Counted from the first letter of the stretch, positions 4,581 to 36,513 are shown. The stretch: DNA of 47,651 bases from Pseudomonadota bacterium (GCA_031406045.1 JANOGO010000312.1:1-47651); one strand, 5' to 3'. Program-made: numbers and translations. Notes: generated by a model from the letters alone, not told the origin.

Positions 4581-4601
4581 GCGATAGCAACAAGCAAAAC
4601 G

Positions 4602-4628
4602 AAAAGGGCGCCTAGGCGCCCTTTTTTA
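4602..4628. terminator. Bidirectional rho-independent terminator
   Basis: 'aaaagggcgcc ta ggcgccctttttt' is a perfect 9-bp GC stem with an A-run on one side and a T-run on the other. It sits between the convergent pqqA (+) and lipoprotein gene (-). Confidence 0.85.
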
Positions 4629-4665
4629 TTTCTATTAAAGAACGTGAACGCGAGAACGCTCATTT

Positions 4666-4932
4666 TTAAGTTTCGTTCGGCGCTTTAGCCGGCAGCAATT
4701 TGCCGGACGTCCCGACGCTAATCGAAGCGCCGCCGGCGCCGATACCGATCGAACCGCCAAAGCGGCCATCGGAATTCAGGTTCACACCCACACTACCAAA
4801 CGGACCGATCGGAAGACTAATGCCAATGCCGCCGCCATGCGCGCAGCCGAACATCGCTAACCAAACACCCGCCAGCACGGCCCATTTTGCCAACTCCCAC
4901 CCGCGAGAGGTTGCTACAACCATTCGTTTCAC
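4666..4932 (-). CDS. Small glycine-rich lipoprotein (hypothetical)
   Basis: 88 aa. Signal peptide with lipobox 'LAMFGC', followed by Gly-rich repeats 'GGGIGISLPIGPFGSVGVNL...GGSIGIGAGGASISVG'. Confidence 0.55.
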   Translation of the reverse strand: MKRMVVATSRGWELAKWAVLAGVWLAMFGCAHGGGIGISLPIGPFGSVGVNLNSDGRFGGSIGIGAGGASISVGTSGKLLPAKAPNET

Positions 4933-5029
4933 GTTGCTGCCTCTTGCTTAATGATGGGAGCGGCGAAGTCTAACGAATTTGATGGTGCGGGATTGTAAAC
5001 GAATGTTACAAGTTCGAAAAAATGCTGAT

Positions 5030-6289
5030 CTACTTGCGATCGGCCACGACTTGTTCCAACAACGCGGCCAGTTCTTTAGTGCGCGAACGGCGCGAATGCC
5101 GATTCGCGATTTCCGCTCGAACGCCTTTGCCACTGCCATCGCGCAGCTTATCCAAAAAGCGCCGCAGCCCGGCGGCGATATCGTTTGCATCGGTGATGTT
5201 GACGATGTCCGTAACCTCGGCCGTGCGCAGCGAACTCGCGGTGTTGCCGATCGGATCGGTCAGCGTAAAAATCGGGCGGCCGGCGCGCAGGTATTCGTAC
5301 AGTTTCGCCGGGATTTGATGGTTGCACATGCTCGCTTGAAACAACAGCAAACCATCGGCAACCAACATCTCGCGCAACGCGTCACGGTAGTTGACGGTCG
5401 GCGCCAGTTTAACGATGTCCGTTAAACCCGATTCTTCCAACATCGGCCGATAGTGATGGTCGCTTCCGGTCGCGCGCAGCACCACTTGTAAGCGTTCTGC
5501 AGAAATATCACCGCGTTCTTTGAGCGCCTTCAATGCCGCGAAGAATGGCTTGGGATCTCGTTCTTGTGGATACAAAATACCGCTGTGGATCAGTGTAAGT
5601 TGGCCGGGCTGGCCTAAGGGTTTCGGATCGAAGCCCGCTTCGGCATCACGAAAATTTTCGTCATCAAAACCATTCTCGATGACCGACCAGTTGGAACTTG
5701 GTTTTTCCGGGTAGCGTTCGGCGTACATCTCCAGCGTACCTTGCGTAGTAAATACGGCGCGGGCGCAGCGATGAATAATCGCAGCTTCCAAACGCCGATG
5801 AATTTTCCAGGTCAGCGGATCGCGCGGGTAGCCGGGCTCCGTCATGGAATCGCGAAAATCTGCCAGCCACGGCAAGCCGCTAAGGCGCTGCAGACACAGC
5901 CCGATCAGATGCGCAGTCGCAATCGGATAAGTCGACATAATCGCCGCCGGGCGATGCTTGCGAATCATCGCCATGCCGCGCCACACCGCTCCCGGCAACC
6001 AACTCACCCAACGATCCGGCTGCGCCAGCCATCCCGGATAACGTTTGCCGATCGCTAAATGCCGCGAGGTATCCAAACCAAAAGCACGTTCGACCACCAT
6101 GCCTTCGGGAATCTCGGCCATCTGGTCATCGCTCGTTTGCTCGTACGCGCGCGGCGAAATCGTTAGAACCATCGGCTCCCAGCCATTTTCGCGAAGATAA
6201 GCTGAAAATTTCAGCGTGCGTTGAATGCCGCTACTGACCTTGACCGGCGGGTAGTGGTAAGCGATGAGCAGCACGCGACGATTGATCAT
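5030..6289 (-). CDS. Glycosyltransferase (GT-B/GT4-like), EPS-locus type
   Basis: 419 aa. The N-terminus 'RVLLIAYHYPPVKVSSGIQRTLKFSAYLRENGWEPMVLT' is typical of EPS sugar transferases, with a C-terminal Rossmann half. Last gene of the minus-strand locus. Confidence 0.6.
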   Translation of the reverse strand: MINRRVLLIAYHYPPVKVSSGIQRTLKFSAYLRENGWEPMVLTISPRAYEQTSDDQMAEIPEGMVVERAFGLDTSRHLAIGKRYPGWLAQPDRWVSWLPGAVWRGMAMIRKHRPAAIMSTYPIATAHLIGLCLQRLSGLPWLADFRDSMTEPGYPRDPLTWKIHRRLEAAIIHRCARAVFTTQGTLEMYAERYPEKPSSNWSVIENGFDDENFRDAEAGFDPKPLGQPGQLTLIHSGILYPQERDPKPFFAALKALKERGDISAERLQVVLRATGSDHHYRPMLEESGLTDIVKLAPTVNYRDALREMLVADGLLLFQASMCNHQIPAKLYEYLRAGRPIFTLTDPIGNTASSLRTAEVTDIVNITDANDIAAGLRRFLDKLRDGSGKGVRAEIANRHSRRSRTKELAALLEQVVADRK

Positions 6290-6302
6290 TGTTGTAAGCG
6301 CC

Positions 6303-7151
6303 TCAAAGATCGAGCGCCATGGTTTCGGAATAAAGATAGTCGATGTCGCTATCGGTCAACGTCGTACTCAGATAGACCTTCGCGTTAAAGCCGCTACGTA
6401 TTTTGGACGGCCACGGTTGCCGCGAAAGGAATCGGCACTCGACATGCGTGCTCGCGATGCCGCGCAAAATAAAATGCCGGGCCAAGCGCTGATTGTGTTG
6501 CTCGAAAATCGCCGGATCGCTCAAGTAATAAACATGCGCCGAGGAAAGCCCTTTGAAGCGCGCTAATTTGTAAATGATGTGGCACCATTTATCGTTCGCA
6601 CCAATCAGCACATGATGTAGCCACGGGAAAACCGCATGGTCGCGATAAACTTTTAACGCGTCGCCCTTAAGCGCTCGCTCAATATCATTGGGCTGAGATA
6701 ACAGTTTTGAAGCAAGTGCTGGCCACGGTAAATTAATCATGACGGCTTGACGCTCATCCAGCGGCTTGAACTTCAAAAACTGCAACACGCCACCGACAAC
6801 CTTAGTCGGCGAAAAATCGGTGAAATGAAAACCCTTTTGCCCAATCACCGCCATCGCCAGGCGCATACTTTGCTTGCGATACGCATCGAGCACGCACCAA
6901 CTGGTGATGTTGCAGGTGCGCTGCGGCTGGCCGTTTATGCTTCGCTCGGCATAATAGGCGCCGATTCCGCCGACAATTTTTCCGTCGTCGCGCAACACAA
7001 AGCCGTGATTGGGCGGCGCCATGCCCCAACTCTTTTGCAATCCTTCAACCCACGCGTGCGGCGAACGAGCGTTAGTCAAATTCGCGTGCAGAAACGCCGC
7101 GAATTCGGGCAGTGTTTCGCTGGTAATCGGCTCAATGATGGGTTGCGCCAT
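6303..7151 (-). CDS. GNAT-like acyltransferase (tentative)
   Basis: 282 aa. 'GFVLRDDGKIVGGIGAYYAE...ITSWCVLDAYRKQSMRLAMAVI' resembles a GNAT core (beta4-alpha3). The C-terminal half is unassigned. Confidence 0.4.
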   Translation of the reverse strand: MAQPIIEPITSETLPEFAAFLHANLTNARSPHAWVEGLQKSWGMAPPNHGFVLRDDGKIVGGIGAYYAERSINGQPQRTCNITSWCVLDAYRKQSMRLAMAVIGQKGFHFTDFSPTKVVGGVLQFLKFKPLDERQAVMINLPWPALASKLLSQPNDIERALKGDALKVYRDHAVFPWLHHVLIGANDKWCHIIYKLARFKGLSSAHVYYLSDPAIFEQHNQRLARHFILRGIASTHVECRFLSRQPWPSKIRSGFNAKVYLSTTLTDSDIDYLYSETMALDL

Positions 7152-7173
7152 ACCTAAGCCTCACCAAACGAAA

Positions 7174-8073
7174 TTACCATTGCCGCAACCACTGCAAACC
7201 CCAATTCACCACTTGATCGCGTTCCCCTGCGGACGAAAACGTATGGTCAGAATCGGTGAAATCATGGCGCGTCACCGATTTAATCTTGAGTTGTTGTTGC
7301 CAACCCGGCGATCCGCGTACCCATTCGTCGAATTCGCGTGCGATCAAATCGCGGCCGCTCATGACCAACATGATCGGCCCGTCAAAGCGCGTCAGCCCCG
7401 CGAGCATGCGATCGGGCAGCGCCAGATCGCGCGGCAATTCGCTCGCGAAAGAATCAACTTTGAGTTCTTTGCCCGATGACGATTGCGCTCGCGACTGGCC
7501 GATCAACTTTAGCGCCGATCCCAGTGACTTAAAAGGATTGAAGTGGCCGCTGAAAATTTTCTTCCAGAAACTCGGTTCCATGAAACGCTTGAGATAATAA
7601 TGACGCAAAATCGCTTTTGCTTGGCCCTCGGCCGTGCGCACCCATGGATTGAGCAGTACTAAGCCTTTCACCCGCGTGTCGCGATAGGCGTAAAACAAAA
7701 TCGCGGAAGCGGCATTGCACTCTCCCCACAACACGATCTCGTCCAATTCAGGCACTTCAGATTTAAAGCGTTCCATCGCCGCGCGGATGTCATCGTCGAC
7801 GACGTCGAAATCATGGAATTCACCATGGCTGTCACCCCAACCGCGGTAGTCGAAGCGGAATACTGGGTAGCCTTCCTCGGCCATACGCCGCGCCCACAAA
7901 ACCAATTGGCGATGACCGCCGACACGATACTGCGGCCCTCCTGCGACGGCGATTAAAATGCCGCGCTTAGCTTTCATTGCAGGGCGATGCAGAATGCCGA
8001 CGAGCGGATCGCCATTGCATTCGAAACGAATCGCCGACTCGTTCACGCGTTCGCCCACGTTTGTTTTGCCCAT
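7174..8073 (-). CDS. Alpha/beta hydrolase, exosortase-A-system-associated hydrolase 1 type
   Basis: 299 aa. 'GILIAVAGGPQYRVGGHRQ', 'FRFDYRGWGDS' and the elbow 'LWGECNAASA' resemble the TIGR03100-type family as I remember it. Immediately downstream of, and overlapping by 31 nt, the hydrolase-2-type gene. Confidence 0.65.
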   Translation of the reverse strand: MGKTNVGERVNESAIRFECNGDPLVGILHRPAMKAKRGILIAVAGGPQYRVGGHRQLVLWARRMAEEGYPVFRFDYRGWGDSHGEFHDFDVVDDDIRAAMERFKSEVPELDEIVLWGECNAASAILFYAYRDTRVKGLVLLNPWVRTAEGQAKAILRHYYLKRFMEPSFWKKIFSGHFNPFKSLGSALKLIGQSRAQSSSGKELKVDSFASELPRDLALPDRMLAGLTRFDGPIMLVMSGRDLIAREFDEWVRGSPGWQQQLKIKSVTRHDFTDSDHTFSSAGERDQVVNWGLQWLRQW

Positions 8074-8888
8074 GCCGTCGTCGCATCAATCGCGCTGGTA
8101 GAAATTGCGCGTTCCGCAACCTGCCAAAAATTCGGGCCCTCGAAAAATTTCACGTCGATTTTCGCGCCATTGGTGCGCCAGGCATTGATCACTTTTTGGC
8201 TGGCCGGGGCCGCCTCGGTTGCAGCCTGTGCCGCTTGTTCAAGCCACAGCGCCGGTGTGTTCGGCGGGGGGGCAAACGCATCCAATCGCGCCGCATCAAG
8301 CGCTGCCGCGAATTCCGGATGAATTTCGTAACCCGATACTTCTAAGGGTTTGCCCGCGGCCAATTGTTCACGCATGGAATGGGTTGTTTCCTTCGGCAAA
8401 TGCGGCTTTTCCATTTGTGCGGCGATGCGCATGCGCAAAAATTGTGTGAAGTGTTGTTTGCCATCGACCACCGGCTGCCATGCAATGAAAGCGGTATGAG
8501 TTAATGCGCTTGATTTCAGTGCTTCTGCCGCCAGAATGGCGCCTAGGCGAATTCCCCAAACACCGATACAACCGCCGGGCTGACCATTGAGCCATGCGAT
8601 CCCGGCGCGGATATTATCCAGCCAAATCGCCCAGCGCGCGTCGACATAGTTGCCGCCGCTGTCGCCGGTGCCGTGTAAATCAAGCAGCAACGTACCAATG
8701 CCCAACTGCGCGAACGCTTGTGCCTGTAGCGCAACCATGCTGCGACAGCGATTCATCTCTTCGTTAAATGGCGGCACACAGAGAACGTGACCGCGAACCG
8801 GGGTGCCATCGATAGGCCGATGATGAACAGCGAAAAGCCTTCCATTGGGCACATCGAGAAAAAAAGTATCAAGCGTAGCCACAGGCAT
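8043..8888 (-). CDS. Alpha/beta-fold protein, exosortase-A-system-associated hydrolase 2 type
   Basis: 281 aa. 'VLCVPPFNEEMNRCR', 'LLLDLHGTGDSGG' and the elbow 'VWGIRLGAILA'. Its pairing with the hydrolase-1-type gene is the hallmark of this family pair (TIGR03101-type, from memory). Confidence 0.6.
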   Translation of the reverse strand: MPVATLDTFFLDVPNGRLFAVHHRPIDGTPVRGHVLCVPPFNEEMNRCRSMVALQAQAFAQLGIGTLLLDLHGTGDSGGNYVDARWAIWLDNIRAGIAWLNGQPGGCIGVWGIRLGAILAAEALKSSALTHTAFIAWQPVVDGKQHFTQFLRMRIAAQMEKPHLPKETTHSMREQLAAGKPLEVSGYEIHPEFAAALDAARLDAFAPPPNTPALWLEQAAQAATEAAPASQKVINAWRTNGAKIDVKFFEGPNFWQVAERAISTSAIDATTAWAKQTWANA

Positions 8889-8927
8889 GTGCGCTCGCGG
8901 GTTTCGGATCGGGAAATGTAACGCTAA

Positions 8928-9197
8928 TTACGCCTGACCCTTGCGACGCAGCACAAAGTCAGCCATGGACGATAGCGTGCCCAGATTATCAATCGTGATT
9001 TCTTCTTGTGCGAGGCGGATCTGGAAATGATCTTCGTACCAAGCAATCAGCTCAAGCAGCCCGGCCGAATCGATCAGGCCGGTCGCCGGAATGATGTCTT
9101 CCGTTTGCAACTCGCTGGCATCGTCGCCCATGCGATCGGCGATTTCGACAACTTTATTTTTGATCGCAAGTTCAATTTCTTGCTTATTCAGGCTCAT
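8928..9197 (-). CDS. Acyl carrier protein (phosphopantetheine-binding)
   Basis: 89 aa, acidic. 'TGLIDSAGLLELIAWYEDHF' is a Ser attachment motif at the start of helix 2. 15 nt downstream of the E2 gene. Confidence 0.7.
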   Translation of the reverse strand: MSLNKQEIELAIKNKVVEIADRMGDDASELQTEDIIPATGLIDSAGLLELIAWYEDHFQIRLAQEEITIDNLGTLSSMADFVLRRKGQA

Positions 9198-9212
9198 CTC
9201 GATGGGTTCCGG

Positions 9213-10310
9213 TTAAACAGGATTACTGGGTTTAGAAAGTTTACGAAGCGCGGTAACAACATGAAAGCCATTCAACACGCGATGATCGTAGCTCGCGCCG
9301 AGCACCGAACGGCCATCCAGCGAAACCGCGTGAGCGATCATAATCGCGGTGCGCGGCGGCAGAATCGGAATATGGCGGCTCACCTTCCAACGCGCCATGC
9401 TGGAGAACGAAATCGTCGTTCCTTGAATTTCTTTCGGGCCGAGCTTATGGGTCGCGGCGCGGCGCTGCAAGTCGCCCATCGCGTTGACGAATCCGATTTC
9501 ATCCAGAGCCTGCGAATCGCGCGCAACGGTGAGATAAAGTGTATCGCCCGCTTGCACCGTGAATCCAAAATTCACGGACGAATATTCGTAACGCTGATTG
9601 CCAACAATGGTGGAATTCAGTTGCGGCGTTTCTTTCGCCAACTCCACCAGACGCCAACACATTAACGACAGCAGCGGGCTGAGCAATAATTTGTGGCGCT
9701 CACCGAAGGCTTTCGCATAGGCTTCCCATGGCGCGGGGTCGTATTCGAGTTCGATATAACCCGCCACAGCAACATCGCGATGCCAGGTCACCGTCGCAAT
9801 CATTCCGCGCTCTTCGCTGCGCAGATCGCGTAGCGCGCCGGCAATATCAGGCACAGCTTCCACCACGCGACTCGGCACCGGCGCCACAGCCGCTTTGCCG
9901 CGATTAGTCAGAAATTGTTCAATGTCCTCAACCGTTAACCGATCACCACTTGCAGGAACATCGTTCGCGTCCAAGCCGTGTTCGCGCAACAATTGGCGCG
10001 CCTTGGCGGTCGGTTGGCCGGTTGCGGCACTGCGCTGCGTCGATGCCGCAGCAATGGGCATCGCTTCGTCAGCACGCTCACCCATCCACAACAACACGCT
10101 GCCAACGGCGATCACGTCATCAACGTTGGCTAGAACGCCAAGCACAAAACCATCAGACGGCGCTTCGACTTCGACGACCGCCTTATCGGTTTCAACTTCG
10201 GCAACGAGTTGTCCACGAGCAATTTTTTCGCCGGCGGCAACGCGCAACGACACGAGCTTCACTTCGTCGTCATTATTGTTTACGCGCGGGACATGAATGG
10301 GGATGGCCAT
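9213..10310 (-). CDS. Lipoyl-domain 2-oxoacid dehydrogenase E2-like acyltransferase
   Basis: 365 aa. Lipoyl domain 'LVAEVETDKAVVEVEAPSDG'. E3/E1-binding-like segment 'AKARQLLREHGLDANDVPASGDRLTVEDIEQFL'. Compact catalytic domain ending in 'SYDHRVLNG' (DHRxxDG-type His motif). Confidence 0.8.
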   Translation of the reverse strand: MAIPIHVPRVNNNDDEVKLVSLRVAAGEKIARGQLVAEVETDKAVVEVEAPSDGFVLGVLANVDDVIAVGSVLLWMGERADEAMPIAAASTQRSAATGQPTAKARQLLREHGLDANDVPASGDRLTVEDIEQFLTNRGKAAVAPVPSRVVEAVPDIAGALRDLRSEERGMIATVTWHRDVAVAGYIELEYDPAPWEAYAKAFGERHKLLLSPLLSLMCWRLVELAKETPQLNSTIVGNQRYEYSSVNFGFTVQAGDTLYLTVARDSQALDEIGFVNAMGDLQRRAATHKLGPKEIQGTTISFSSMARWKVSRHIPILPPRTAIMIAHAVSLDGRSVLGASYDHRVLNGFHVVTALRKLSKPSNPV

Positions 10311-10330
10311 GGTGCTATTTCCTCAATTCG

Positions 10331-12319
10331 TCAGAGCATGTCCAGCACATGGCTGACAATGGTTTGTTCGTCCGGCAACTGATCACGCTCGAGGCTTCGC
10401 GCCGATGCAATCGGCGCCGGCGGCGTCCCGATGCGAATAATTTTGCCGCGATAACCTGCCTCCGCGAGGCTGGCGAGAATTTCTGCGCTGACGCCGAATT
10501 GGTGATGGGATTCCTCGACGACCGCGATATGCGAGCGTTGCAACAAGGCCGAGATCAAGGTCTGGCGCGGTAAAGGAGCCAACATCGCAAGCGCAATGAT
10601 TTCCACTTCAAGTTCTTCTTCGTCGCTCAAGCGCTTTGCCGCTCGCTCGACCACCGGCAACATGCCGCCAAAACTCACGAGCGTCACATCCGGCGCGTTG
10701 CTGCCGCGACGCAACGTCGGGAAAAGCTCAGCGCCTAAATCAGATGCGTTGGGCGGAATCACAGCGTAGTCGGCCGGATCCTGCGCCTCGCCGTAAAGCA
10801 ATTTGTGCTCTAGGAATATTGTCGGATTTGGCCAGCGGCGTGCGGTGTCGGCCAGCAATTGCCCGACATTATGGCGATGGCTGCCGTAAATCACCGTGAG
10901 CCCCGGCACCGATACGAACAGATTTTCGGGACTTTGGCTATGGGTCGGGCCGTAGCCACGACGCCCGCCGCAAGGGGTGCGAACCACCAGCGGCACGTCC
11001 ACTTCCGGGAACATGCCGGGAAATTTTACCGCGTGGTTGTAAATTTGGTCCATGCACAGTGACAAGAAATCGGCGAACATGATTTCGACGATCGGGCGCT
11101 TACCCGCCAACGCGAGGCCGATGCCACTGCCGGTAATGCCCGCTTCGCTGATCGGCGTGGAAATTACGCGTCCGGGGAATTCCGACGATAATCCCGCTGT
11201 TACTTTAAACGCCCCACCGTAAGGCTCGTGCAAATCTTCACCGAGGACGACGACGTTTTCGTCTTTGCTGAGCAAATCGCGCAGCGCCGCATTGATTGCG
11301 CCGCGAACGTTAGCGGCTTTTGCCGGTTGAACACCGGCGTTAGAAACTTGAACAGCGCGCAAGGAATGTTGCGGCACACTGGCAAATCTCGCCTCCGGCG
11401 AAGCCAACGCTTCGGCCTCAATGTCGCGCAGAAACGCGGCGTTTCGCGTCTCAATTGCTTCACGTTCACCAGACGGTAAACGCCGGCCAATGGCCAAAAG
11501 CGGATCGCGATCGGCAATGGCCTTGCGCTCGGCTTCGTCGCGTAAATCATCACCTTTGCTGTGGGGGCCGAGACGTTTGGTATCGATTACGAGCATGCCG
11601 GGGCGCCCGGCATTGCGCAATTCTTCAACGACGTTCGCGACCGATTGCGCAAAATCTTTCGCGCTATCGTCGAGCCGCCAAGTCCGCAAACCAAACGCTT
11701 GGCCGCGCCCTTCAATGGTACCGCCGATGGTGTCGTGGGTGTAGGTGGTTTGCGCGATACCGTTGTTTTCCACGACGAACAAAACCGGCGCTTTCCAAAT
11801 AGAGGCGAGATTCATGCTCTCGTATAACAGGCCTTCACCTAATGTACCGTCGCCGATCATCGTCGCGACAATCGCGCGGCTCTTCGACATTTTTCGCGCC
11901 AGCGCCAGGCCGGTGCCAATGCCGGTCATACCGGCTTGCACCCCATTGCTGTGAAAATGGCGAAACGCCATATGTTGGCTGCCGCCGTAACCGCTGCACA
12001 CGCCAGCTTCGCGGCCCATAATCTCGGCGACCAACCCGGTGAAATGTCCGGAATAGGTCATAAAGTGGCCGTGATTGCGGTGATTCGACAGTACGACGTC
12101 ATCGGGATCGTTTAAGGCTCGAACCACCGACATCTGGCACAATTCTTGGCCCAAGCAAGTGTGCGTCGTGCCGGACAACAAACCACGACTAAACAAATCG
12201 AGGATCAATTCCTCGGTGCGGCGAATCAAATGACCGTAGGCGTACAGGCTGGCGTCGTCCAGACCGATGAGCGGCTTGCCGAATGCATCGCGCTGAAAGC
12301 CTGGTATGTCTCTTATCAT
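10331..12319 (-). CDS. Thiamine-diphosphate-dependent dehydrogenase E1, fused alpha/beta subunits
   Basis: 662 aa in one polypeptide. The N-terminal half carries the TPP motif 'IGDGTLGEGLLYESMNLASIWKAPVLFVVENNG'. The C-terminal half is transketolase-like ('VVVLGEDL..PYGGAFKVT', 'TPISEAGITG'). Confidence 0.85.
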   Translation of the reverse strand: MIRDIPGFQRDAFGKPLIGLDDASLYAYGHLIRRTEELILDLFSRGLLSGTTHTCLGQELCQMSVVRALNDPDDVVLSNHRNHGHFMTYSGHFTGLVAEIMGREAGVCSGYGGSQHMAFRHFHSNGVQAGMTGIGTGLALARKMSKSRAIVATMIGDGTLGEGLLYESMNLASIWKAPVLFVVENNGIAQTTYTHDTIGGTIEGRGQAFGLRTWRLDDSAKDFAQSVANVVEELRNAGRPGMLVIDTKRLGPHSKGDDLRDEAERKAIADRDPLLAIGRRLPSGEREAIETRNAAFLRDIEAEALASPEARFASVPQHSLRAVQVSNAGVQPAKAANVRGAINAALRDLLSKDENVVVLGEDLHEPYGGAFKVTAGLSSEFPGRVISTPISEAGITGSGIGLALAGKRPIVEIMFADFLSLCMDQIYNHAVKFPGMFPEVDVPLVVRTPCGGRRGYGPTHSQSPENLFVSVPGLTVIYGSHRHNVGQLLADTARRWPNPTIFLEHKLLYGEAQDPADYAVIPPNASDLGAELFPTLRRGSNAPDVTLVSFGGMLPVVERAAKRLSDEEELEVEIIALAMLAPLPRQTLISALLQRSHIAVVEESHHQFGVSAEILASLAEAGYRGKIIRIGTPPAPIASARSLERDQLPDEQTIVSHVLDML

Positions 12320-12452
12320 TGAGTCGTCGCTTGGCTAAACGCCGACCGGGTTACGGGCAGCGGGTGTAACAAATTGATATTATGGAATTTTTGATCTTGG
12401 CCGGGTCGAAAAACAAACGCCGACTGTGGCCGTATTGCCGGTACGCTACCGG

Positions 12453-12704
12453 CTAACTATCTAACTTGCTCTTGACGAAGCCAACTAAGCTGCCCAGTGT
12501 CGCGAAAGTATCAGCGCTGATCTCATCGTCCTCAACGCTGATACCGAATCGATCTTCCATCGCGGTAATAACATTGACCACCGCCATGGAATCCAACTCG
12601 GGAATGCTGCCGAGCAACGGTGTCGATTCGTTCAATTGCGATTTGCGCGCGCCCAAGCTCAGCACATCGGCGAGCATGGTCTTGATGTCTTCTGCAACGT
12701 TCAT
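12453..12704 (-). CDS. Acyl carrier protein (second copy in the locus)
   Basis: Start trimmed to the internal ATG 12704 (MNVAEDIKTML...), giving ~83 aa. 'IPELDSMAVVNVITAMEDRFG' is a canonical DSx attachment motif. First gene of the minus-strand locus. Confidence 0.75.
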   Translation of the reverse strand: MNVAEDIKTMLADVLSLGARKSQLNESTPLLGSIPELDSMAVVNVITAMEDRFGISVEDDEISADTFATLGSLVGFVKSKLDS

Positions 12705-12859
12705 GGTTAAGTTATTGATTACGAATATGAGGTTTATAGCATATCTTTTTCCGAGCGTTCGCGTTTTGGGTTGGAAAATGCGCTGTCGCACTCTAGAATT
12801 CGTAAAACCAATGAGTTAGTCGGCCCGCACGGGCAAACGCCTAAAACGAATAAATCCCC

Positions 12860-14839
12860 ATGTCCAGCGCTGCACCCGAACTGAATTACCGGCCCGATAT
12901 CGACGGGCTGCGCGCCATTGCCGTGCTGTCGGTCATTTTGTTTCATATTAACAAGGCCTTGATTCCCGGCGGTTTTGTCGGCGTCGATATATTTTTTGTG
13001 ATATCGGGCTTTCTGATCTCGCTCAATATTCTCAAAGATTTGGAACTCGGGCGCTTCTCGCTCGCCGACTTTTACCGCCGCCGCATCAAGCGCATCGCCC
13101 CGCCGATGCTGATTGTGGTTGGATTAACGCTTATCGCGGCGCAATTTGTATTGCTACCGGAAGACGCCGAAAAAACCGCGCAATCGGGGCTTTGGTCGCT
13201 GCTATCCCTGGCAAACGTCTATTTTTGGCTGTATCAGGACACCAGCTACTTTGCCGCCGCGAGTAGCGAAATCCCGCTGCTTCACCTTTGGTCGCTCGGC
13301 ATCGAGGAGCAGTTTTACATTTTCTGGCCACTGATTCTGATGGCGTTGTATCGTCCATCTCGGTCGAAACTATTTTTCGGCATCGCCGCGCTCATCGGCT
13401 TGGGGTCATTTGTACTGGGCGAAATCCTATTCGAGCGCGCGCCTTCCTTTGTTTATTACATGTTGCCGACGCGCGCCGGCGAATTGTTAATCGGTGGCTT
13501 GGTCGCGTTTTTTGTTCTGCGCAATGTCGGCGCCAAGGTTCCGGGAAAACTCGTCACGCCGATGGCCGTTGTCGGCATCCTGCTGCTAGTACTTTCCTTT
13601 TTCACGCTCTCCGAAGGGCAAGTGTTTCCCGGCTTGCGCGCGATTCCACCGACGCTCGGCGCCGCTCTGTTGATTTTTGCCGGACATTGCAATAACAACA
13701 TCGTCTCGCGCCTGCTCGCGCTGCGGCCGATGGTTTGGATCGGGCTGATTTCCTATTCTGCGTATTTGTGGCATTGGCCGCTGCTGGCATTTTATCGCTA
13801 TGGGCATCGCGAAGTTGGGCCGCTCGCGGGCATTGTTATTTTTGTGCTGACGCTGTTTTTTGCCTGGCTGACCTATCGATTCGTCGAAGGCCCGTCACGC
13901 CGCTCGAACGCGTCGACTCTGCAAATATTTTTACGGCAATTCGTAGTTCCGGCCGGCGCGCTGGCGATTTTCTCGCTCGCCGCGATGAAACTGGATGGCT
14001 ATGGTCTACGCTGGTTTTCGCCGGACTATAAGAAGCAAGCGACGGCGCTGCGGCAAGAAACGCTGCCAGCCTATTCTTATAAATATGTTTGCCAGCGGCA
14101 AAAACTCACTGTAGCCGACGCCAACGATCCCAATTGCATTGTCGGTGCCGACTCGAACGCCGCGCCAGTAGCCATTATATGGGGCGATTCGAATGCGGCG
14201 CATTACATCGGCATGGTCGGCGCCTTCGCGAAAAAAGACGGTTTTCGCGTTCGTAACATCGCCGTCGGCGCGTGCCCGCCGCTGTTTGGCGATCCCAAGG
14301 CGTTCGTCGCCGCGACGCGGCTTACCGATTGTCGCGACTCCGCGGCAACGGTAAAGCAAGCAATCGGCCCGTTCAAAACGATCGTGATTTCCGCCGACTG
14401 GCTGATGTATCAAGGACGTTCCGCGCAATTTCTCGATGCATTTTTTGAGACCGTTAGCTCGCTTGAAAAAGACGGCAAGCACATTATTCTAATCGGCAAA
14501 GCCCCGGTTTTTCCGAACTATGATCGGCGCTGTGAAGAAAAAGCGCTGAGCTATCCAGGGCTGGATTGTCCGCCATTCACCGCCGCGCTCGGCACTGATG
14601 TGGCGCAGGTGAACGACCAGCTCAAGGCCTTCGCGGCGCGCAGCGCCAACGTCAAATTCTTCGATACTGCACATTACCTTTGTCCAAAGAACGCCTGCTC
14701 CGCGTTCGATTCGAACGGGCGGCCGGGCTACTATGATGCGAGCCATCTTTCCATGCCGGCCTCGTGGAAGTTGGGTGAGGATATTCTGCAATTTGGCGGC
14801 GTGCCAGCGCCCTTTAATTCAATCGCATCCGCCCAGTAA
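12860..14839 (+). CDS. Acyltransferase-3 family O-acyltransferase with C-terminal SGNH domain (OafA/YrhL-like)
   Basis: 659 aa. The N-terminus has ~10 TM segments with 'DGLRAIAVLSVILFH' and 'HLWSLGIEEQFYIFWP'. The C-terminal soluble domain carries 'IIWGDSNAAHY'. Divergent from the ACP/E1/E2 locus. Confidence 0.85.
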   Translation: MSSAAPELNYRPDIDGLRAIAVLSVILFHINKALIPGGFVGVDIFFVISGFLISLNILKDLELGRFSLADFYRRRIKRIAPPMLIVVGLTLIAAQFVLLPEDAEKTAQSGLWSLLSLANVYFWLYQDTSYFAAASSEIPLLHLWSLGIEEQFYIFWPLILMALYRPSRSKLFFGIAALIGLGSFVLGEILFERAPSFVYYMLPTRAGELLIGGLVAFFVLRNVGAKVPGKLVTPMAVVGILLLVLSFFTLSEGQVFPGLRAIPPTLGAALLIFAGHCNNNIVSRLLALRPMVWIGLISYSAYLWHWPLLAFYRYGHREVGPLAGIVIFVLTLFFAWLTYRFVEGPSRRSNASTLQIFLRQFVVPAGALAIFSLAAMKLDGYGLRWFSPDYKKQATALRQETLPAYSYKYVCQRQKLTVADANDPNCIVGADSNAAPVAIIWGDSNAAHYIGMVGAFAKKDGFRVRNIAVGACPPLFGDPKAFVAATRLTDCRDSAATVKQAIGPFKTIVISADWLMYQGRSAQFLDAFFETVSSLEKDGKHIILIGKAPVFPNYDRRCEEKALSYPGLDCPPFTAALGTDVAQVNDQLKAFAARSANVKFFDTAHYLCPKNACSAFDSNGRPGYYDASHLSMPASWKLGEDILQFGGVPAPFNSIASAQ

Positions 14840-20467: not shown

Positions 20468-21286
20468 CTATTTTTGCTGCCGGCCTGCCGCTTGTTTTGC
20501 TTCGCTCGATCGCATGAATTTGATATCGCCGAAAAAGCCTTCCGATTTTGTTTCGGTCGCATCGGAATCACAGTGGATGCCAATCGACACCATTCGCCCC
20601 GGCTCTTCGCCAAACACGCGACGAAAATCCTCGACGATGTTGCGATTCTCCATCACCCATTCGCCGAGACGCTCGGGACCGCTTTGCGCCAACAACAAAC
20701 GAATGCGCGGATTCCAGCCATTGTTAATCACGCTTTCTTTCGCTGCGCCGTCGCCCCAAGTGTATTCAAGCGTGGCATAGGGTGGATCGGTGCCTAACAA
20801 TGCGCGCGATTCGGCAAAAGTCATTTGATCGCTAAACGATAATTTGTCTTTATCGCCTTCGAACGCGATGATAATCCGTACCGGCGTGTCCTCGGATTTA
20901 CGGCTGGTTGAGTTTGCGCCCGGCACCAAACGCGGCGCTTTCCAACGCCAGCTTAAAATCGGAAACTCGTTCGGATCGATATCGATATTTTCCAGCATTA
21001 CCGACGACGAATTTTCCGATATCGCATGGGCGACCGTCGTTCCATCGTCATCGACTAATTCGAATTTCGTCGGCGCGCGAAACCTCGAAAAACTCAGTTC
21101 TTGCCAACCGCCGGGAAACGCGCCGCCAGGCTTCGCGACAGAAAATGGAGTGACTTGCTTAGACGCAATTTTTCCGCCGGCGGGGGGCGAGTGGGCGCAA
21201 CCGCTTTGCAATACGGCCAGCGCGACGACCGCCAGAACGACCGTGTGTGACGTTCGGATCGATCGAATAAATTCAGTGAAAATCAT
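20468..21286 (-). CDS. DUF3047-like secreted protein
   Basis: 272 aa with an N-terminal signal/anchor. 'ILSWRWKAPRLVPGANSTSRKSEDTPVRIIIAFEGD' and 'TLEYTWGDG' resemble the DUF3047 family as I remember it. Confidence 0.55.
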   Translation of the reverse strand: MIFTEFIRSIRTSHTVVLAVVALAVLQSGCAHSPPAGGKIASKQVTPFSVAKPGGAFPGGWQELSFSRFRAPTKFELVDDDGTTVAHAISENSSSVMLENIDIDPNEFPILSWRWKAPRLVPGANSTSRKSEDTPVRIIIAFEGDKDKLSFSDQMTFAESRALLGTDPPYATLEYTWGDGAAKESVINNGWNPRIRLLLAQSGPERLGEWVMENRNIVEDFRRVFGEEPGRMVSIGIHCDSDATETKSEGFFGDIKFMRSSEAKQAAGRQQK

Positions 21287-21427
21287 GCTATTCCCTATTT
21301 TGCATTTTCGCCATCAATGGCTACCGCAAACCGTTATCATACCTGCAATGCCAGTAACCGCACCACGCTTGCCTTTCCATTGCATCTGGCCTGTGAGCCA
21401 TTATCCACGCGCCTCTTGGAGCACGGC

Positions 21428-22162
21428 TTATTTAAACATTTCACTGCGATCGAGAAATTGTTGCCATAATCGTAACCACGTGCGCCAATCGTGACCGCCC
21501 GGAATCACCGCCACCTGCGCGGCCGGCAAGCGCGTCGCATACCAGCCAAGCGGCTTGGCAAACCGATCGCTCGCGCCATAACTCAAATGAAATTTCAGCG
21601 GCGATTCCCTTTGTTTAAAATCCCGCAGCCACGCGATGACCAAACGCTGATCGTCCCACGGATCGGAGAGATCGGGGCGCCACGCGTCCAGACCACCGGC
21701 TTTGATCACTTCATCGAATATTTTTTTCTCGCCAAGAAACGGCGCGAGCAACAACATCCCTTCTACTTCGTTTGCGTTCCGCCGCACATACTGCAACGAT
21801 CCCCAACCGCCCAGTGAAATGCCGACAAACCAAATACGGCGATAGCCTTTCGCGCGCGCCGGCACGATCACATCTTGATGCAATCGTTCGACGACGATGT
21901 GTTTTTCGTAATAGCCCCAATGCGCTCGCACTGCGACAAGATCCGCGTCGATATTGCGTTCGCGCACGGCCTGAACGAATCCCTCATTCAGAAACGTCTC
22001 CGGCGCATCGGCGATGCCAGGCAACAATACAATTAAGTTTTGGCTCGGATTCACGCCGCTGGGAAAATAAAGTTGATCGATCGGCGTCGTGACCGGCAAA
22101 GGTTTTGTCGCGCAACCCACAAGCGTGATCAATAAAATGAATAGGTAACGACGATAAATCAT
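21428..22162 (-). CDS. Alpha/beta-hydrolase lipoprotein (esterase)
   Basis: Start trimmed to ATG 22162 (MIYRRYLFILLITLVGC, lipobox LVGC), which forms an ATGA overlap with the MMPL gene stop. Nucleophile elbow 'FVGISLGGWG'. Confidence 0.65.
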   Translation of the reverse strand: MIYRRYLFILLITLVGCATKPLPVTTPIDQLYFPSGVNPSQNLIVLLPGIADAPETFLNEGFVQAVRERNIDADLVAVRAHWGYYEKHIVVERLHQDVIVPARAKGYRRIWFVGISLGGWGSLQYVRRNANEVEGMLLLAPFLGEKKIFDEVIKAGGLDAWRPDLSDPWDDQRLVIAWLRDFKQRESPLKFHLSYGASDRFAKPLGWYATRLPAAQVAVIPGGHDWRTWLRLWQQFLDRSEMFK

Positions 22163-24531
22163 ATTGTCGAAACCGAGCGGTCGGGCGTTAATACCGCAGC
22201 AAAAATCAAGCTCAGCACCGCGCCGCACGCAACGGTCGCGCCGATCGCCGCGAGCACCGGCGTTTGGCACAGGCCAAGCAAGCCGAATCCGATGATCGTG
22301 GAAATGTTGCATAACACCAGTGAGGCCAGCGTCCGCTCCGGCGCGGCCCGCGCGAAATTTTCGTTATCGAAAAACAACGAATAATTCGAACCGACGCCGA
22401 TCACCAACAGCAAACCGACGAGGTGAAAAATACTCAGCGCATGCCCGGCGATCAAGGTCAGCGCCGTCGTCACAATCACCGCTGCTACGAGCGGCGCAAG
22501 CACTCGATAAGTCCGCGCAACACTGCGCAAACTCACCAGCAGCAGCGCGGTAATTGCCAGGGCGCCGAGCAACGCGTTGATCAGCGCTTGGTGACGATAA
22601 CGGCTGAACAATTGGTCTGATTCTGTTTTCAGATTAATCAGTGAAACGCTGCTGTCGTTCAATGCGGAAATCGCTTGGCGCAAACGCGCTTCGTCTTTCA
22701 AGCCACGAATCGGCATTAGCCCTACGGTGGCGCCGCGCTTGGTCACGAGCAAACCGTCGACTTTGAGCTGGAACGCGGTGCCGGCCAAGTTTTCGCGCGT
22801 GAGTAACGGCGCAGATTTAGTTTTTGCAACATCATTCAAGAACGGTTGAAACAACCCATTTTGAAACGGCATGCCTTGCACAGCCGCATCCAGATTGCCT
22901 CGCAGCACCGATGCCTCGGGGAGCGAAGCGCGGCGCGCCTCCTGGCTTGCCTTGCTTGGTAGATAAAGTGATGGCGCATCGAAACCGCTCATCACGCTCT
23001 GTTCGATCAGCTGTCGTAATACGCGCGACAGTTCCTCGGATTTTTGTAACGCCGCTTCTTCATCTTTACCTTTGACCGTGAGCAACACGCCGACTTCCGG
23101 CGCGCCGATATCGCCGCGCAACGACTCGTCGAGTTTTTTGTCGGCGATCGGCATCGGGCTCAAGCTGCCGAGATCATCGTTCCACAAACGGTCGCGATGA
23201 GAAAAAACAATCGCAACACCGAGCGCGGCAAGTGCCCAGACGAGCATTTTCAACTTGGGAGCAAACGCCGCCAAGCTCAGCAACCGCTGCCGTAAACCCC
23301 AACCGATAGGGGCGCTGAAGCCCGCTGGCATAAAATGCGGCAGAACCCAACGGGTAACCAACAACGCTGTGACAATGCCAGCGATGGAAAACAAACCTAA
23401 CTGCCCTAGTCCCGGAAAACCGGAAAAAAACATCGCGCTGAATCCCGCCACGGAAGTCAGCACGCCGAGGCGCAGCGTGGGCCAAATTTGGTTCAGCGAT
23501 TCACTCGCTTTGCGTTCACGCGTTTGTTGCGTGAAAAGATAAATCGCATAATCGACCGCTTCGCCGATCAGGGTCACGCCGAAGCCGAGCGTGATGCCGT
23601 GCACCGACCCGTAGGCCACGCTGACGGCGCTGATGCCCGCCAAGACACCGGTGCCGACGGGCAACAAACCGAGCAGCAGAATTCGCGGCGAGCGATAAAA
23701 CCACAGGATCAACACGGCGACCAAAACGGTGGCGATGGTGGAGTTTTTTGTTGCGTCGGAACGGATCGCTTCGCGCGTGTTAATCGCAAACACACCGGGG
23801 CCAATGGCGAGCAACTTTAATTGTTTATCGCCGGCAATTTTTCCGAAACGCTCACGCAACTCTTTTTGAATCACCTCTTGCGCGTCGAGATCGAACCCCG
23901 GCGCCTTGGTTTGCACGACTAGTAACGCTCGTTTGCCGTCGCGCGAAAACCACACACCGTCGCGCTGCGCCGGGCGGGTTTCACCTTCGAATTGCTCGAT
24001 CAGATGAATGAATTCGCCGCTCGGATCCTCCGGCAAAATTCGCTTCACCAACATGCCGAGCGGTGAGCCAAGTAGATCGAGATTGTTCTCAAGAGACGCG
24101 CGTAATCCATCGGTGGAAAATCGTTGCGGCGTGACAGCATCGCTGAGCAAATATCGATTCTTCAACAAATAATCGCGCTCGGGACCCATGCGCGTTTCAT
24201 CGCCGTTTTGCACGTAAGCCAAACTGGGCATCGCGATCAACTGTTCGAGAAATGTTTTACTCGCTGCGGCGCGCTGCGCCTCGTCACCGCCTTCGATAGC
24301 CAATAACAAAATGCGCGAGACGACGCCGTCTTGCAATTGATCGACCAAAATCTGCTGCGCTTCGCTCGGCTTGCTCGGCAGAAACGCACTGATGTCGCCA
24401 GTGATCGTCGTGTTATGAATGATCCACGCGCACGCGAATACTACCAACAACCAAATGATGGCGGCGCGCAACGCAGCGGATTTCAAAAGGCACTCGCGCC
24501 GGCAGGCAATAGGGACGGGCTGGCCAGGCAA
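22159..24531 (-). CDS. MMPL/RND-superfamily exporter (aryl-polyene cluster type)
   Basis: 790 aa with two bundles of ~6 TM helices separated by large soluble loops. Located where the MMPL exporter sits in aryl-polyene/xanthomonadin clusters. Confidence 0.8.
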   Translation of the reverse strand: MPGQPVPIACRRECLLKSAALRAAIIWLLVVFACAWIIHNTTITGDISAFLPSKPSEAQQILVDQLQDGVVSRILLLAIEGGDEAQRAAASKTFLEQLIAMPSLAYVQNGDETRMGPERDYLLKNRYLLSDAVTPQRFSTDGLRASLENNLDLLGSPLGMLVKRILPEDPSGEFIHLIEQFEGETRPAQRDGVWFSRDGKRALLVVQTKAPGFDLDAQEVIQKELRERFGKIAGDKQLKLLAIGPGVFAINTREAIRSDATKNSTIATVLVAVLILWFYRSPRILLLGLLPVGTGVLAGISAVSVAYGSVHGITLGFGVTLIGEAVDYAIYLFTQQTRERKASESLNQIWPTLRLGVLTSVAGFSAMFFSGFPGLGQLGLFSIAGIVTALLVTRWVLPHFMPAGFSAPIGWGLRQRLLSLAAFAPKLKMLVWALAALGVAIVFSHRDRLWNDDLGSLSPMPIADKKLDESLRGDIGAPEVGVLLTVKGKDEEAALQKSEELSRVLRQLIEQSVMSGFDAPSLYLPSKASQEARRASLPEASVLRGNLDAAVQGMPFQNGLFQPFLNDVAKTKSAPLLTRENLAGTAFQLKVDGLLVTKRGATVGLMPIRGLKDEARLRQAISALNDSSVSLINLKTESDQLFSRYRHQALINALLGALAITALLLVSLRSVARTYRVLAPLVAAVIVTTALTLIAGHALSIFHLVGLLLVIGVGSNYSLFFDNENFARAAPERTLASLVLCNISTIIGFGLLGLCQTPVLAAIGATVACGAVLSLIFAAVLTPDRSVSTI

Positions 24532-24538
24532 GGCATGG

Positions 24539-25165
24539 CTAAGAGGTAGTATCGATAAGGGTCCTAGCGATGCCTGTTGTTTCAGGAGCAGCGCTGCTGA
24601 TGGCTTCTTCGGTCACCGTCATCTCCGAATGATCACCATCGGCCTCGGTAATTTCGATCACATTCATGCGATCTTTACTGCCGCGAATGACGATCGATTG
24701 AATCAATGCCGTCATTTTTTTCTCGGTCGGTTGTAATTGCAATTGCCATGCTTGGCGCGAGCCCTCGAGCTTTACTTTGTAGAATTGCCGCAGCGCCGAC
24801 AGATCGCCCTTGAGCGTGCCGCGCATGCTTTCGACGAATGCCCACAACACCGGATAATCTTGAATTTGCAGTGAACGCTTGCGGCCGCGCATCTCGATCG
24901 TCAACGTATCTTGATCGACCACCATGCTTTCCGGCTTGGGCGCGAGCGTGAGTTTTTCCAATCGATGCGGCGCGGTATAGATTAAACGGCCCGACGATTC
25001 CAGCGGCGCATTAAGCAGCTTCAAATATTTTTTCTCGACGAATGTGCCTTTCGCTTGCTTGACGCGGCCGAGTTCGATCATCAATTCCGATAGGCCCCAC
25101 GCGGAATCTGCCGCGTGAGCAGGCAGCGACAGCGCAAGCAGCAACAACAACAAATATTTAAGCAT
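24539..25165 (-). CDS. LolA-like outer-membrane lipoprotein carrier protein
   Basis: The probable start MLKYLLLLLLALSLPAHA (ATG 25165) overlaps the upstream gene by 8 nt. ~208 aa, secreted, LolA-like size and pattern. Canonical partner of the MMPL gene in these clusters. Confidence 0.6.
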   Translation of the reverse strand: MLKYLLLLLLALSLPAHAADSAWGLSELMIELGRVKQAKGTFVEKKYLKLLNAPLESSGRLIYTAPHRLEKLTLAPKPESMVVDQDTLTIEMRGRKRSLQIQDYPVLWAFVESMRGTLKGDLSALRQFYKVKLEGSRQAWQLQLQPTEKKMTALIQSIVIRGSKDRMNVIEITEADGDHSEMTVTEEAISSAAPETTGIARTLIDTTS

Positions 25166-26066: not shown

Positions 26067-26380
26067 GAATTCACTCGCGCGACGGAATATTCGAAATTAC
26101 CGGACAACACCAAAGTTGCCAAGACGCTGCATTGGAATTTTACTTGTGTCGGCGTGACGGTTTCAAACTGAATGGTGACGGTATTGCCGGGTCGCGTTGG
26201 ACTCAAAAACTTTGCCACTTTGATGGTGATTTTTTCCAGCGGCGCGACAATTATTTTTTCCCAAGCACGTATCACTTCACTGAGCAGCAATGCGCCTGGG
26301 ACGATTGGATTTCCGGGAAAATGGCCCGCGGCCGAGGGGTGATCCCGCGGGATTACAATGTCGACTTGAGTCATTGGCAA
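26063..26380 (-). CDS. Hotdog-fold 3-hydroxyacyl-ACP dehydratase (FabA/FabZ-like)
   Basis: 105 aa. 'HPSAAGHFPGNPIVPGALLLSEVI' is the FabZ-type catalytic His motif. Confidence 0.7.
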   Translation of the reverse strand: MPMTQVDIVIPRDHPSAAGHFPGNPIVPGALLLSEVIRAWEKIIVAPLEKITIKVAKFLSPTRPGNTVTIQFETVTPTQVKFQCSVLATLVLSGNFEYSVARVNS

Positions 26381-26405
26381 AACGAGCGCAGCGTCGCGGT
26401 AAAAT

Positions 26406-27734: not shown

Positions 27735-27768
27735 ATTAAAATTGCGGGCGCGTGTTCGAATAGGCGCC

Positions 27769-27853
27769 AACCCCTCACCCTGCACCGTCTCCCCATAGGG
27801 GAGAGGGGATTCGGCTCCCTCTCCCGCTTGGGGGTGAGGGTTGGGGTGAGGGC
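27769..27853. repeat. GGGTGAGGG-type REP element, copy d
   Basis: 'cccctcaccctgcaccg tctccccataggggagagg ggattcgg ctccctctcccgcttgggggtgagggttggggtgaggg'. Inserted between two genes of the minus-strand aryl-polyene operon. Confidence 0.65.
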
Positions 27854-27896
27854 CGGCACATATTTCACAAAGATCGTCGATCCAATTTGCAAAAGC

Positions 27897-28550: not shown

Positions 28551-28555
28551 GCGGA

Positions 28556-28831: not shown

Positions 28832-28919
28832 AATTCCGGCTAAAGTGCCTTGCAGTCGCGAGAATTGATATTATACGGGTAAGGTTTCAATCGCCAAAAC
28901 TCATGCAAGCATAAACCGT

Positions 28920-30113: not shown

Positions 30114-30123
30114 ACCCTATGCA

Positions 30124-32470: not shown

Positions 32471-32481
32471 CGATGCCTAAA

Positions 32482-36491: not shown

Positions 36492-36513
36492 GGTCGATCC
36501 GCTTACGGCTTCC

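Follow-up and report, generated by a model that had tools for sequence, protein, structure and literature searches.

We have identified a conserved three-gene unit that may charge an acyl carrier protein (ACP) from the lipoyl arm of a 2-oxoacid dehydrogenase-type enzyme. The unit lies in a 47,651-nucleotide contig of a Pseudomonadota bacterium (GCA_031406045.1 JANOGO010000312.1:1-47651; this whole stretch is hereafter called the window), on the minus strand within positions 8928-12704, and encodes an E1 component, a lipoyl-bearing E2 component and a small carrier protein, ACP2. A 282-residue protein of predicted tandem-GNAT (Gcn5-related N-acetyltransferase) fold, p282, and not the two hydrolases encoded nearby, is the constant partner of this E1-E2-ACP2 triad. 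We judge it slightly better than an even chance that E1 acylates the lipoyl-E2, that holo-ACP2 receives the acyl group from E2, and that p282 installs it on an amine of the polymer or of its precursor. The occurrence of E1 and E2 with a carrier of their own in the exopolysaccharide (EPS) clusters of many environmental bacteria suggests an undescribed acyl-making route for surface-polymer decoration.

The conservation of the triad was established by neighborhood censuses. An E2-anchored scan with an alignment of E2 covered one genome per species in 185,579 species and found 134 loci, 80 of which were retrieved with 10-kb flanks. All locus counts were made by tblastn with the window's proteins, the greedy open reading frame (ORF) caller being noisy on GC-rich loci (shadow ORFs), and co-occurrence counts were restricted to the 51 E2 loci with at least 5 kb on both sides. 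Of the species-genome loci that could be evaluated, 66 of 68 have E1 directly 5' of E2, and 70 of 75 have ACP2 directly 3' of E2. Hosts include Burkholderiales, Rhodocyclales, Nitrosomonas, Thiobacillus, Hydrogenophilales, Gallionellaceae, Chromatiaceae, Ectothiorhodospiraceae, Methylococcaceae and Acidobacteriota, with single loci in a planctomycete of the Gemmataceae and in an alphaproteobacterium. The coupling of the E1/E2 pair to a carrier protein, to which an earlier note on this DNA had drawn attention, is thus the most conserved feature of the locus. That note had proposed a census of how often this E1-E2 clade occurs with ACPs and hydrolases, and had set against its own idea an ordinary acetoin or branched-chain 2-oxoacid dehydrogenase clade with no conserved ACP adjacency; what the census found is an ACP2 that is kept next to E2 across phyla.

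The remaining neighbors vary. p282 is present in 44 of the 51 E2 loci. Hydrolase 1 (hydr1) and hydrolase 2 (hydr2) occur together in 24, and neither occurs in the other 27, 20 of which nevertheless have p282. ACP1, a second carrier encoded upstream of E1 in the window, was detected in 22 of the 51, every one of them a locus with hydrolases. Within 10 kb, the 27 hydrolase-less loci contain no adenylating ligase, no ACP1 and no gene for a glycosyltransferase family 4 (GT4)-like protein, and among them there is one decarboxylase homologue. The converse picture was obtained from a metagenome scan anchored on an alignment of hydr1, which gave 32 loci with enough flank. hydr2 is present in all 32 and ACP1 in 31; E1, E2 and ACP2 are present in 13, each of which also has p282, and all four are missing from the other 19 (p282 in 0/19). 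In 18 of these 19 loci ACP1 is directly 5' of hydr2, which is usually followed by hydr1 and, directly 3' of it, the GT4-like gene, the ligase and decarboxylase being close by; the ligase of one orthologous locus (L001) matches TIGR03098 at 789 bits. The neighboring hydrolases had been expected to receive the acyl group, an expectation that does not stand as a general rule in either direction.

Two modules can therefore be distinguished. Module A consists of E1, E2 and ACP2, usually with p282. Module B consists of the TIGR03098 ligase, an ornithine/diaminopimelate (Orn/DAP)-type decarboxylase (TIGR03099), ACP1, hydr2, hydr1 and the GT4-like protein, and often occurs without E1 and E2. In the Burkholderiales/Rhodocyclales clade that includes the window, module A is inserted between ACP1 and hydr2. 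Module B is the older, already known exosortase-A-associated set, with hydr1, which has a Cys nucleophile, as its likely acyl-transfer enzyme. In a rough neighbor-joining tree of E1, three groups are seen: Acidobacteriota, in which the triad stands alone; mixed Proteobacteria, in which p282 joins the triad, often divergently placed with a gene for a 355-aa protein; and Burkholderiales/Rhodocyclales, which have the fused cassette and include the window. What had been one opaque eight-gene cluster is in this way separated into two units with defined components.

E1 (10331-12319, minus strand) is a single polypeptide of 662 aa. A hidden Markov model (HMM) search bore out the thiamine diphosphate (ThDP) motif and transketolase-like beta half that had been read from it, with matches to the Pfam domains E1_dh (1.4e-34), Transket_pyr (2.4e-32) and Transketolase_C (7.9e-18); Transketolase_N reached only 0.0089, which is sub-threshold. 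The ThDP motif is GDG-X26-NN (GDGTLGEG...VVENN in the sequence). For the alpha half the closest match is human PDHA1 (6cer_A, 8.6e-30), with which GQE, GGS-H, GDG..ENN and the catalytic His-Ser loop all align, and the beta half carries the Glu of PISEAG. By these features E1 is a single-chain alpha/beta fusion of the ThDP-dependent 2-oxoacid dehydrogenase E1 type (alpha2beta2 class). It has more than 5000 homologues, and the top 120, at identities of at least 71%, are fused in every case. An 860-aa gene call on one metagenome contig (P0040, L005:10001-12583), in which an Orn/DAP decarboxylase fragment runs into E1, was considered as a Rosetta-stone fusion that might bear on ACP2 and was rejected, the partner joined to E1 being the decarboxylase fragment; the ligase near it is cut to 239 aa, and the arrangement resembles a decaying module B or a frameshift.

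E2 (9213-10310, minus strand, 365 aa) has a lipoyl domain and a catalytic domain ending in DHRVLNG, as had been noticed at the outset; the HMM search returned Biotin_lipoyl at 4.8e-14 and 2-oxoacid_dh at 1.6e-14. The lipoyl domain, a beta-barrel of residues 3-77 in the AlphaFold model (predicted local distance difference test score, pLDDT, 90.8), contains Lys43 in ETDKA, invariant in 64/64 orthologues. The catalytic domain spans residues ~165-358 and includes YDHRVLNG; Asp342-His343-Arg344 is found in 62/62 orthologues and Ser304 in 63/64. This domain had been described as short, which the model does not bear out: the chloramphenicol acetyltransferase (CAT) fold is complete, 208-238 columns align with solved E2 cores at target-normalized template modeling (TM) scores of 0.7-0.82, and Foldseek matches to E2 proteins reach E values down to 1e-27. 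For the proposed subunit-binding-like segment the result was mixed, since residues ~100-136 form a conserved stretch with two modeled helices (102-110 and 127-136) but match E3_binding weakly (18.3 bits against a cut-off of 23.7). Two signatures of the clade, PR[VI]NNNDD at the N-terminus and FSSM-RW, are invariant among orthologues. The former, at residues 8-15, stands where canonical E2s have P-x-L-G-E-S-x-x-E-G, and may be a mark for recognition by the clade's E1 or by the lipoylating enzyme. A more distant E2-like protein (P0295) was also found on short contigs.

The two enzymes stand well apart from curated families. In a scan of 1.84 billion representative proteins, members of the E2 clade scored 200-415 bits and canonical multi-lipoyl E2s at most 112 bits. 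The best NCBIfam models score 84.8 bits (cut-off 722) and 78.2 bits (cut-off 449) on E2, and the AcoC model scores 54.1 bits (cut-off 307). On E1, the best is the pyruvate dehydrogenase (PDH) E1 beta model at 181.9 bits (cut-off 321), and an E1 alpha y-type model reaches 175.5 bits (cut-off 393.85). By these thresholds, which cover the PDH, 2-oxoglutarate dehydrogenase (OGDH) and acetoin dehydrogenase models, as no branched-chain 2-oxoacid dehydrogenase model was among the NCBIfam matches, E1 and E2 fall below every curated cut-off and would not be classed as such a complex.

Both small ORFs resemble carrier proteins, and the attachment serine is kept in both, two points on which the earlier reading could have failed. 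ACP2 (8928-9197, minus strand, 89 aa) matches PP-binding marginally, at 20.4 bits, just below the cut-off of 20.8; Asp43-Ser44 of its LIDSAG motif is invariant in 52/52 orthologues, and its best NCBIfam matches, to the ornithine-lipid ACP and DltC, are both sub-threshold. The best 120 of its 390 homologues are all stand-alone proteins of 87-95 aa. ACP1 (12453-12704, minus strand, 83 aa) matches PP-binding at 29.7 bits and has the motif ELDSMA (Asp38-Ser39-Met40); DSM is invariant in 21/21 orthologues and present in 48 of 52 metagenome loci. The two carriers share 33% identity, and in the tblastn census neither query picked up the other's orthologues. It had been supposed that two dedicated ACPs bracket E1 and E2, and this fails for ACP1: because it occurs only with hydrolases and adjoins hydr2 in loci without E1/E2, ACP1 belongs to the ligase/decarboxylase/hydrolase module and is the carrier of module B, not a partner of E1/E2. 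We propose ACP2 as the sole carrier dedicated to E1/E2 and as the acyl acceptor.

p282 (6303-7151, minus strand, 282 aa) has weak GNAT matches in Pfam, the best being Acetyltransf_1 at 22.2 bits (cut-off 20.7; E 1.8e-4), and no match in NCBIfam. Its source name is "hypothetical protein" throughout the best 120 of 840 homologues. The AlphaFold model is of high quality (pLDDT 90.4, predicted TM score 0.86), and its Foldseek matches are the double GNATs 2ozg, Eis and N-myristoyltransferase (E ~4e-10, TM ~0.6), so that the prediction of a tandem-GNAT acyltransferase is one of high confidence. As the user of acyl-ACP2, p282 is our best candidate.

In the mechanism that we favor, E1 with ThDP would decarboxylate a small 2-oxoacid and reductively acylate Lys43 of the E2 lipoyl domain. 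The catalytic domain of E2, through His343 and Ser304, would hand the acyl group on to holo-ACP2, at its phosphopantetheine thiol, and not to coenzyme A (CoA), and a housekeeping E3 would re-oxidize the dihydrolipoyl arm. p282 would then shift the acyl group from ACP2 to the amine of a sugar precursor or polymer in EPS biosynthesis. Module A would be a self-contained, CoA-independent maker and user of acyl-ACP, and both modules would decorate the exopolysaccharide of the exosortase A (XrtA)/PEP-CTERM type or something attached to it. We infer the transfer from E2 to ACP2 from gene context, given the near-universal adjacency across phyla, the lack of a recognizable ACP loader in module-A-only loci and the precedent of the quinocarcin (Qnc) and scleric acid (Scl) systems; the role of p282 is likewise put forward as an inference. 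The gene context argues for ACP2, not CoA, as the acyl acceptor of E2. Passage of the acyl unit from the lipoyl arm to an ACP, as first suggested, is thus supported by context for ACP2, but not for ACP1. A short 2-oxoacid is the expected substrate rather than a ketose because E1 is of the PDH type, and the acyl group is probably short and, the route being a dedicated one, not plain acetyl. A broader version is offered tentatively, as we lean somewhat against it: triad and tandem-GNAT would form a widespread CoA-independent route from a 2-oxoacid or ketose, by way of a carrier-bound non-acetyl acyl group (glycolyl, propionyl or hydroxyacyl), to the amino sugars of XrtA/PEP-CTERM-type EPS. More remotely still, the triad and module B together would build the moiety to which exosortase attaches PEP-CTERM proteins.

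Several observations weigh against this mechanism and its setting. The active site of E2 (DHR, Ser) is the same in sequence as that of CoA-using E2s. GNATs normally use acyl-CoA, so the donor of p282 could be CoA-borne. No fusion of ACP2 to E2 or to any other protein is present among the best 120 of its 390 homologues, and tblastn found no p282 in the Acidobacteriota clade. Neither an exosortase nor any other EPS machinery is encoded in the window, and the TIGR03098 ligase and the TIGR03099 decarboxylase are both missing from the 47.6-kb contig. The exosortase-type or EPS setting that the earlier note had ascribed to the window itself is thus not borne out, the cassette being flanked by pntAB and by argD/argF/argG. 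The exosortase link of the window follows from the membership of its hydrolases in TIGR03100 and TIGR03101 and from orthologous loci, in which the ligase, the decarboxylase and XrtA/PEP-CTERM EPS surroundings are present; genes around related loci include TIGR03013, TIGR03088 and a TIGR03108-like (asparagine-synthase-like) amidotransferase. A long protein of tetratricopeptide repeats is encoded 5' of one locus (L003).

The first two of these points would be expected if E1/E2 conventionally made an acyl-CoA for p282, and ACP2 served some other step, loaded by an enzyme encoded elsewhere or by an unrecognized 355-aa or 310-aa neighbor. The canonical catalytic residues of E2, its fold like that of CoA-using cores and the use of acyl-CoA by GNAT-fold enzymes such as Eis all fit that arrangement, and conserved uncharacterized proteins do adjoin the triad in hydrolase-less loci. 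However, ACP2 stays within tens of bases of E2 in nearly all loci across phyla while all other neighbors vary, none of the 27 hydrolase-less loci has an adenylating ligase within 10 kb, and a dedicated E1/E2 for a common acyl-CoA would duplicate primary metabolism. We regard this explanation as unlikely, although it deserves to be taken seriously. If E1 were instead transketolase-like and acted on a ketose phosphate or hydroxypyruvate, a glycolyl unit would pass via lipoyl-E2 to ACP2 and give an N-glycolyl-type decoration. The domain set and gene logic match those of QncN/QncL/QncM and SclQ1-4 (PMC6335953), and a non-acetyl unit would account for a dedicated CoA-independent route, but E1 is of the E1_dh/PDH type with Transketolase_N below threshold, and for its alpha half the best alignment is to PDH E1 alpha. 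We find this variant distinctly improbable.

It is also hypothesized, with little expectation on our part, that the fused clade runs one integrated pathway, in which the ligase would load an amino acid on ACP1, decarboxylation would follow, p282 would N-acylate the product from ACP2, and hydr1, with hydr2 as its partner, would transfer it to the polymer. On this view a single product would be served by both ACPs, as the earlier note implied. The tight order ACP1-E1-E2-ACP2-hydr2-hydr1-p282-GT4 is kept in ~24 species and 13 metagenome loci, and butirosin biosynthesis, with BtrI, BtrJ and BtrK, presumably offers a parallel for decarboxylation of an amino acid tethered to an ACP. On the other hand, each module occurs alone (27 loci with A only, 19 with B only), so that neither needs the other, and the window lacks both ligase and decarboxylase. 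Hardly credible at all is that an ordinary PDH, branched-chain or acetoin dehydrogenase paralogue happens to sit beside carrier genes. Joint Genome Institute (JGI) pipelines do label E1 "2-oxoisovalerate dehydrogenase E1 component". Against this, the scores are far under all curated equivalog cut-offs, both the clade signatures and the placement of ACP2 next to E2 are kept across phyla, the surrounding genes belong to EPS biosynthesis and not to catabolism, and no E3 is encoded in any of 85 loci; the census effectively refutes this reading.

The absence of E3 itself carries little weight. In agreement with the earlier note, no lipoamide dehydrogenase (Lpd) gene is among the annotated ORFs of at least 150 aa in the window, and a six-frame search of the window and of 85 related loci did not find the Lpd redox motif CxNxGCxP[ST]K. 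The missing gene, presented as a trait of this locus, is nevertheless unremarkable, since no locus of the family encodes E3, E2 keeps its two-helix segment and a housekeeping Lpd is commonly shared.

The hydrolases of module B form an unusual pair. hydr1 (7174-8073, minus strand, 299 aa) matches TIGR03100 at 311.1 bits (cut-off 168.45) and has the triad Cys119-Asp242-His277 with the elbow G-E-C-N-A (GxCxA); the Cys is conserved in 118/118 loci and the Asp and His in 116/116. hydr2 (8043-8888, minus strand, 281 aa) matches TIGR03101 at 269.5 bits (cut-off 202.75), and in its alpha/beta-hydrolase elbow an invariant Arg occupies the place of the nucleophile (G-I-R-L-G; GxRxG in ~100 loci). Judged by these residues, the pair looks like one thioester-forming enzyme and one nucleophile-less partner. 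Module B would thus probably act via a hydr1 thioester, hydr2 being a non-catalytic or non-canonical partner. The GT4-like protein (5030-6289, minus strand, 419 aa), encoded by the last gene of the operon, matches Glyco_transf_4 and Glyco_trans_4_4, both at ~4e-7.

In the window, these genes form a closely packed minus-strand operon of eight, running from 12704 down to 5030 by ORF coordinates checked on the window. The four ORFs for ACP1, E1, E2 and ACP2 have the strand, positions and order first given for them, and the gaps of 20 nt between E1 and E2 and of 15 nt between E2 and ACP2 were also confirmed; ACP1 and E1 are separated by 133 nt. The operon extends past the interval 8928-12704 through hydr2, hydr1, p282 and the GT4-like gene, with gaps of 39 nt (ACP2-hydr2), 22 nt (hydr1-p282) and 13 nt (p282-GT4-like) and a 31-nt overlap of hydr2 and hydr1. 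The nearest relatives of the window are Burkholderiales or Pseudomonadota metagenome-assembled genomes (L006, L007). A gene for a membrane acyltransferase with AT3 and SGNH domains (12860-14839, plus strand; Acyl_transf_3 1e-35, SGNH 7.9e-39) diverges from ACP1. An orthologue (~80% identity) is found only in the closest relatives (L006, L007, L011), and two other loci (L008, L009) have the ligase and decarboxylase at that place; this acyltransferase is a lineage-specific neighbor. A scan of 4600-13000 for promoters and terminators gave uninformative counts, level with shuffle expectation. A strong bidirectional terminator-like hairpin was observed at 4601-4626, between pntB and the end of the minus-strand operon, with a GC-rich 11-bp stem and T-runs on both sides.

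Other families accompany module A outside the window's clade. In hydrolase-less proteobacterial loci, a 355-aa family (A4; e.g. L061:5611-6678) lies beside p282 and is divergent from E1-E2-ACP2 (L034, L039, L044-L048, L052, L054, L061, L063, L069, L080, L084). It has an invariant HTEEEFDW motif, its sole match is Polysacc_deac_1 at E 0.05, and a PDB search gave no match. If this family were a de-N-acetylase, which is unproven, its pairing with p282 would suggest a logic of deacetylation followed by re-acylation. In Acidobacteriota, two other families come after the triad, one of 310 aa (A5) and one of ~365 aa (A6), the latter ending in ITRGDGDGR..L (L073-L076, L078, L081-L083; e.g. L078:8663-9595 and L081:12420-13517); searches of both against Pfam, NCBIfam and PDB gave no match. 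A relationship between A4 and A5 was rejected (hhalign probability 0.3%), as was A6 as a counterpart of p282, for which the profile match to the first GNAT half was not significant (hhalign probability 4.7%).

A second, unrelated cluster, lipid or aryl-polyene-like, occupies ~20468-37400 of the window. It encodes a DUF3047 protein, an MMPL/RND transporter, a LolA-like protein, an LpxL-like acyltransferase, an AMP-ligase, a ketosynthase, a FabG/FlxB-like reductase, a flavin halogenase-like protein, a GT2 glycosyltransferase and a PlsC-like acyltransferase. A REP-associated tyrosine transposase (RAYT; NF047646, 200.7 bits) lies inside it at 32540-33073.

XrtA/PEP-CTERM EPS loci drive the formation of flocs and biofilms by bacteria of activated sludge and soil, for example Zoogloea, Dechloromonas, Accumulibacter, Thiobacillus and Acidobacteriota. 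If E2 acylates ACP2, lipoyl-to-ACP transfer would extend from two or three antibiotic pathways to broad environmental polymer tailoring, and an unusual acyl substituent would be predicted on these polymers. If a non-acetyl route to EPS amino sugars exists as well, it would represent a new polysaccharide-tailoring class and the first use of lipoyl-E2-to-ACP transfer outside actinobacterial secondary metabolism. A literature search found no paper that joins exosortase, ACP and pyruvate dehydrogenase; these genes are unmentioned in Haft 2006 and undescribed in the Dechloromonas, Rubrivivax and epsSMASH papers. We propose that the new elements are the occurrence of lipoyl-E2-to-ACP chemistry in a widespread clade, the type of E1, the p282 partner and the biological context, a combination that no curated family or searchable paper covers.

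Among known systems, the exosortase A cassette TIGR03098-TIGR03101 is shared in part: the window's hydr1 and hydr2 are adjacent and above cut-off, and ACP1 and the GT4-like gene travel along. Unlike that cassette, the window lacks the ligase and decarboxylase and has module A inserted, and in the family libraries and papers searched, E1, E2, ACP2 and p282 are not part of the described set and TIGR03098-TIGR03101 are bioinformatic families without assigned function. With the PDH, branched-chain and 2-oxoglutarate dehydrogenase complexes, the enzymes share the ThDP motif, the catalytic His loop, the lipoyl-Lys ETDKA, a segment like the peripheral subunit-binding domain and the CAT-fold core; they differ in the fused E1, the single lipoyl domain with PR[VI]NNNDD, the lack of an E3 gene, the adjacent ACP and the EPS context. 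D-alanylation of teichoic acids (DltA/DltC) also uses a small dedicated carrier to bring an acyl group to a surface polymer, and JGI names ACP2 DltC, but DltC is loaded by the adenylating ligase DltA and not by a lipoyl-E2, and the window has no homologue of DltB or DltD. p282 has the double-GNAT fold in common with Eis/2ozg-type tandem GNATs at only 9-15% identity, and it has no counterpart of the third, C-terminal domain of Eis (282 aa versus ~400).

The closest likeness is to the Qnc, naphthyridinomycin (Nap; NapB/NapD) and Scl systems, in which a ThDP enzyme, a lipoyl-E2 and a dedicated ACP make glycolyl-ACP. The flow there runs from a ThDP adduct through acyl-lipoyl to acyl-S-ACP, like the one proposed here. 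The precedent, which the earlier note had cited, is real: transfer from a ThDP-dependent E1 to a lipoyl-E2 to an ACP has biochemical support for QncN/QncL/QncM and SclQ1-4, whose content of six domains is the one found here (PMC6335953). As in the Qnc type, the window has ThDP, Pyr, TK_C, lipoyl and E2 catalytic domains together with a dedicated ACP and no E3. The actinobacterial E1 is split and transketolase-like and takes two-carbon units from ketose phosphates, whereas the E1 described here is a single-chain fusion of PDH type; in QncL an E1 beta-like part is fused to E2, and here E2 is separate. No nonribosomal peptide synthetase (NRPS) is encoded in the window or related loci. The Qnc, Nap and Scl systems feed an NRPS, while the triad is found in Proteobacteria and Acidobacteriota, in XrtA/PEP-CTERM EPS loci and with a tandem-GNAT partner, and the two are likened here by domain content.

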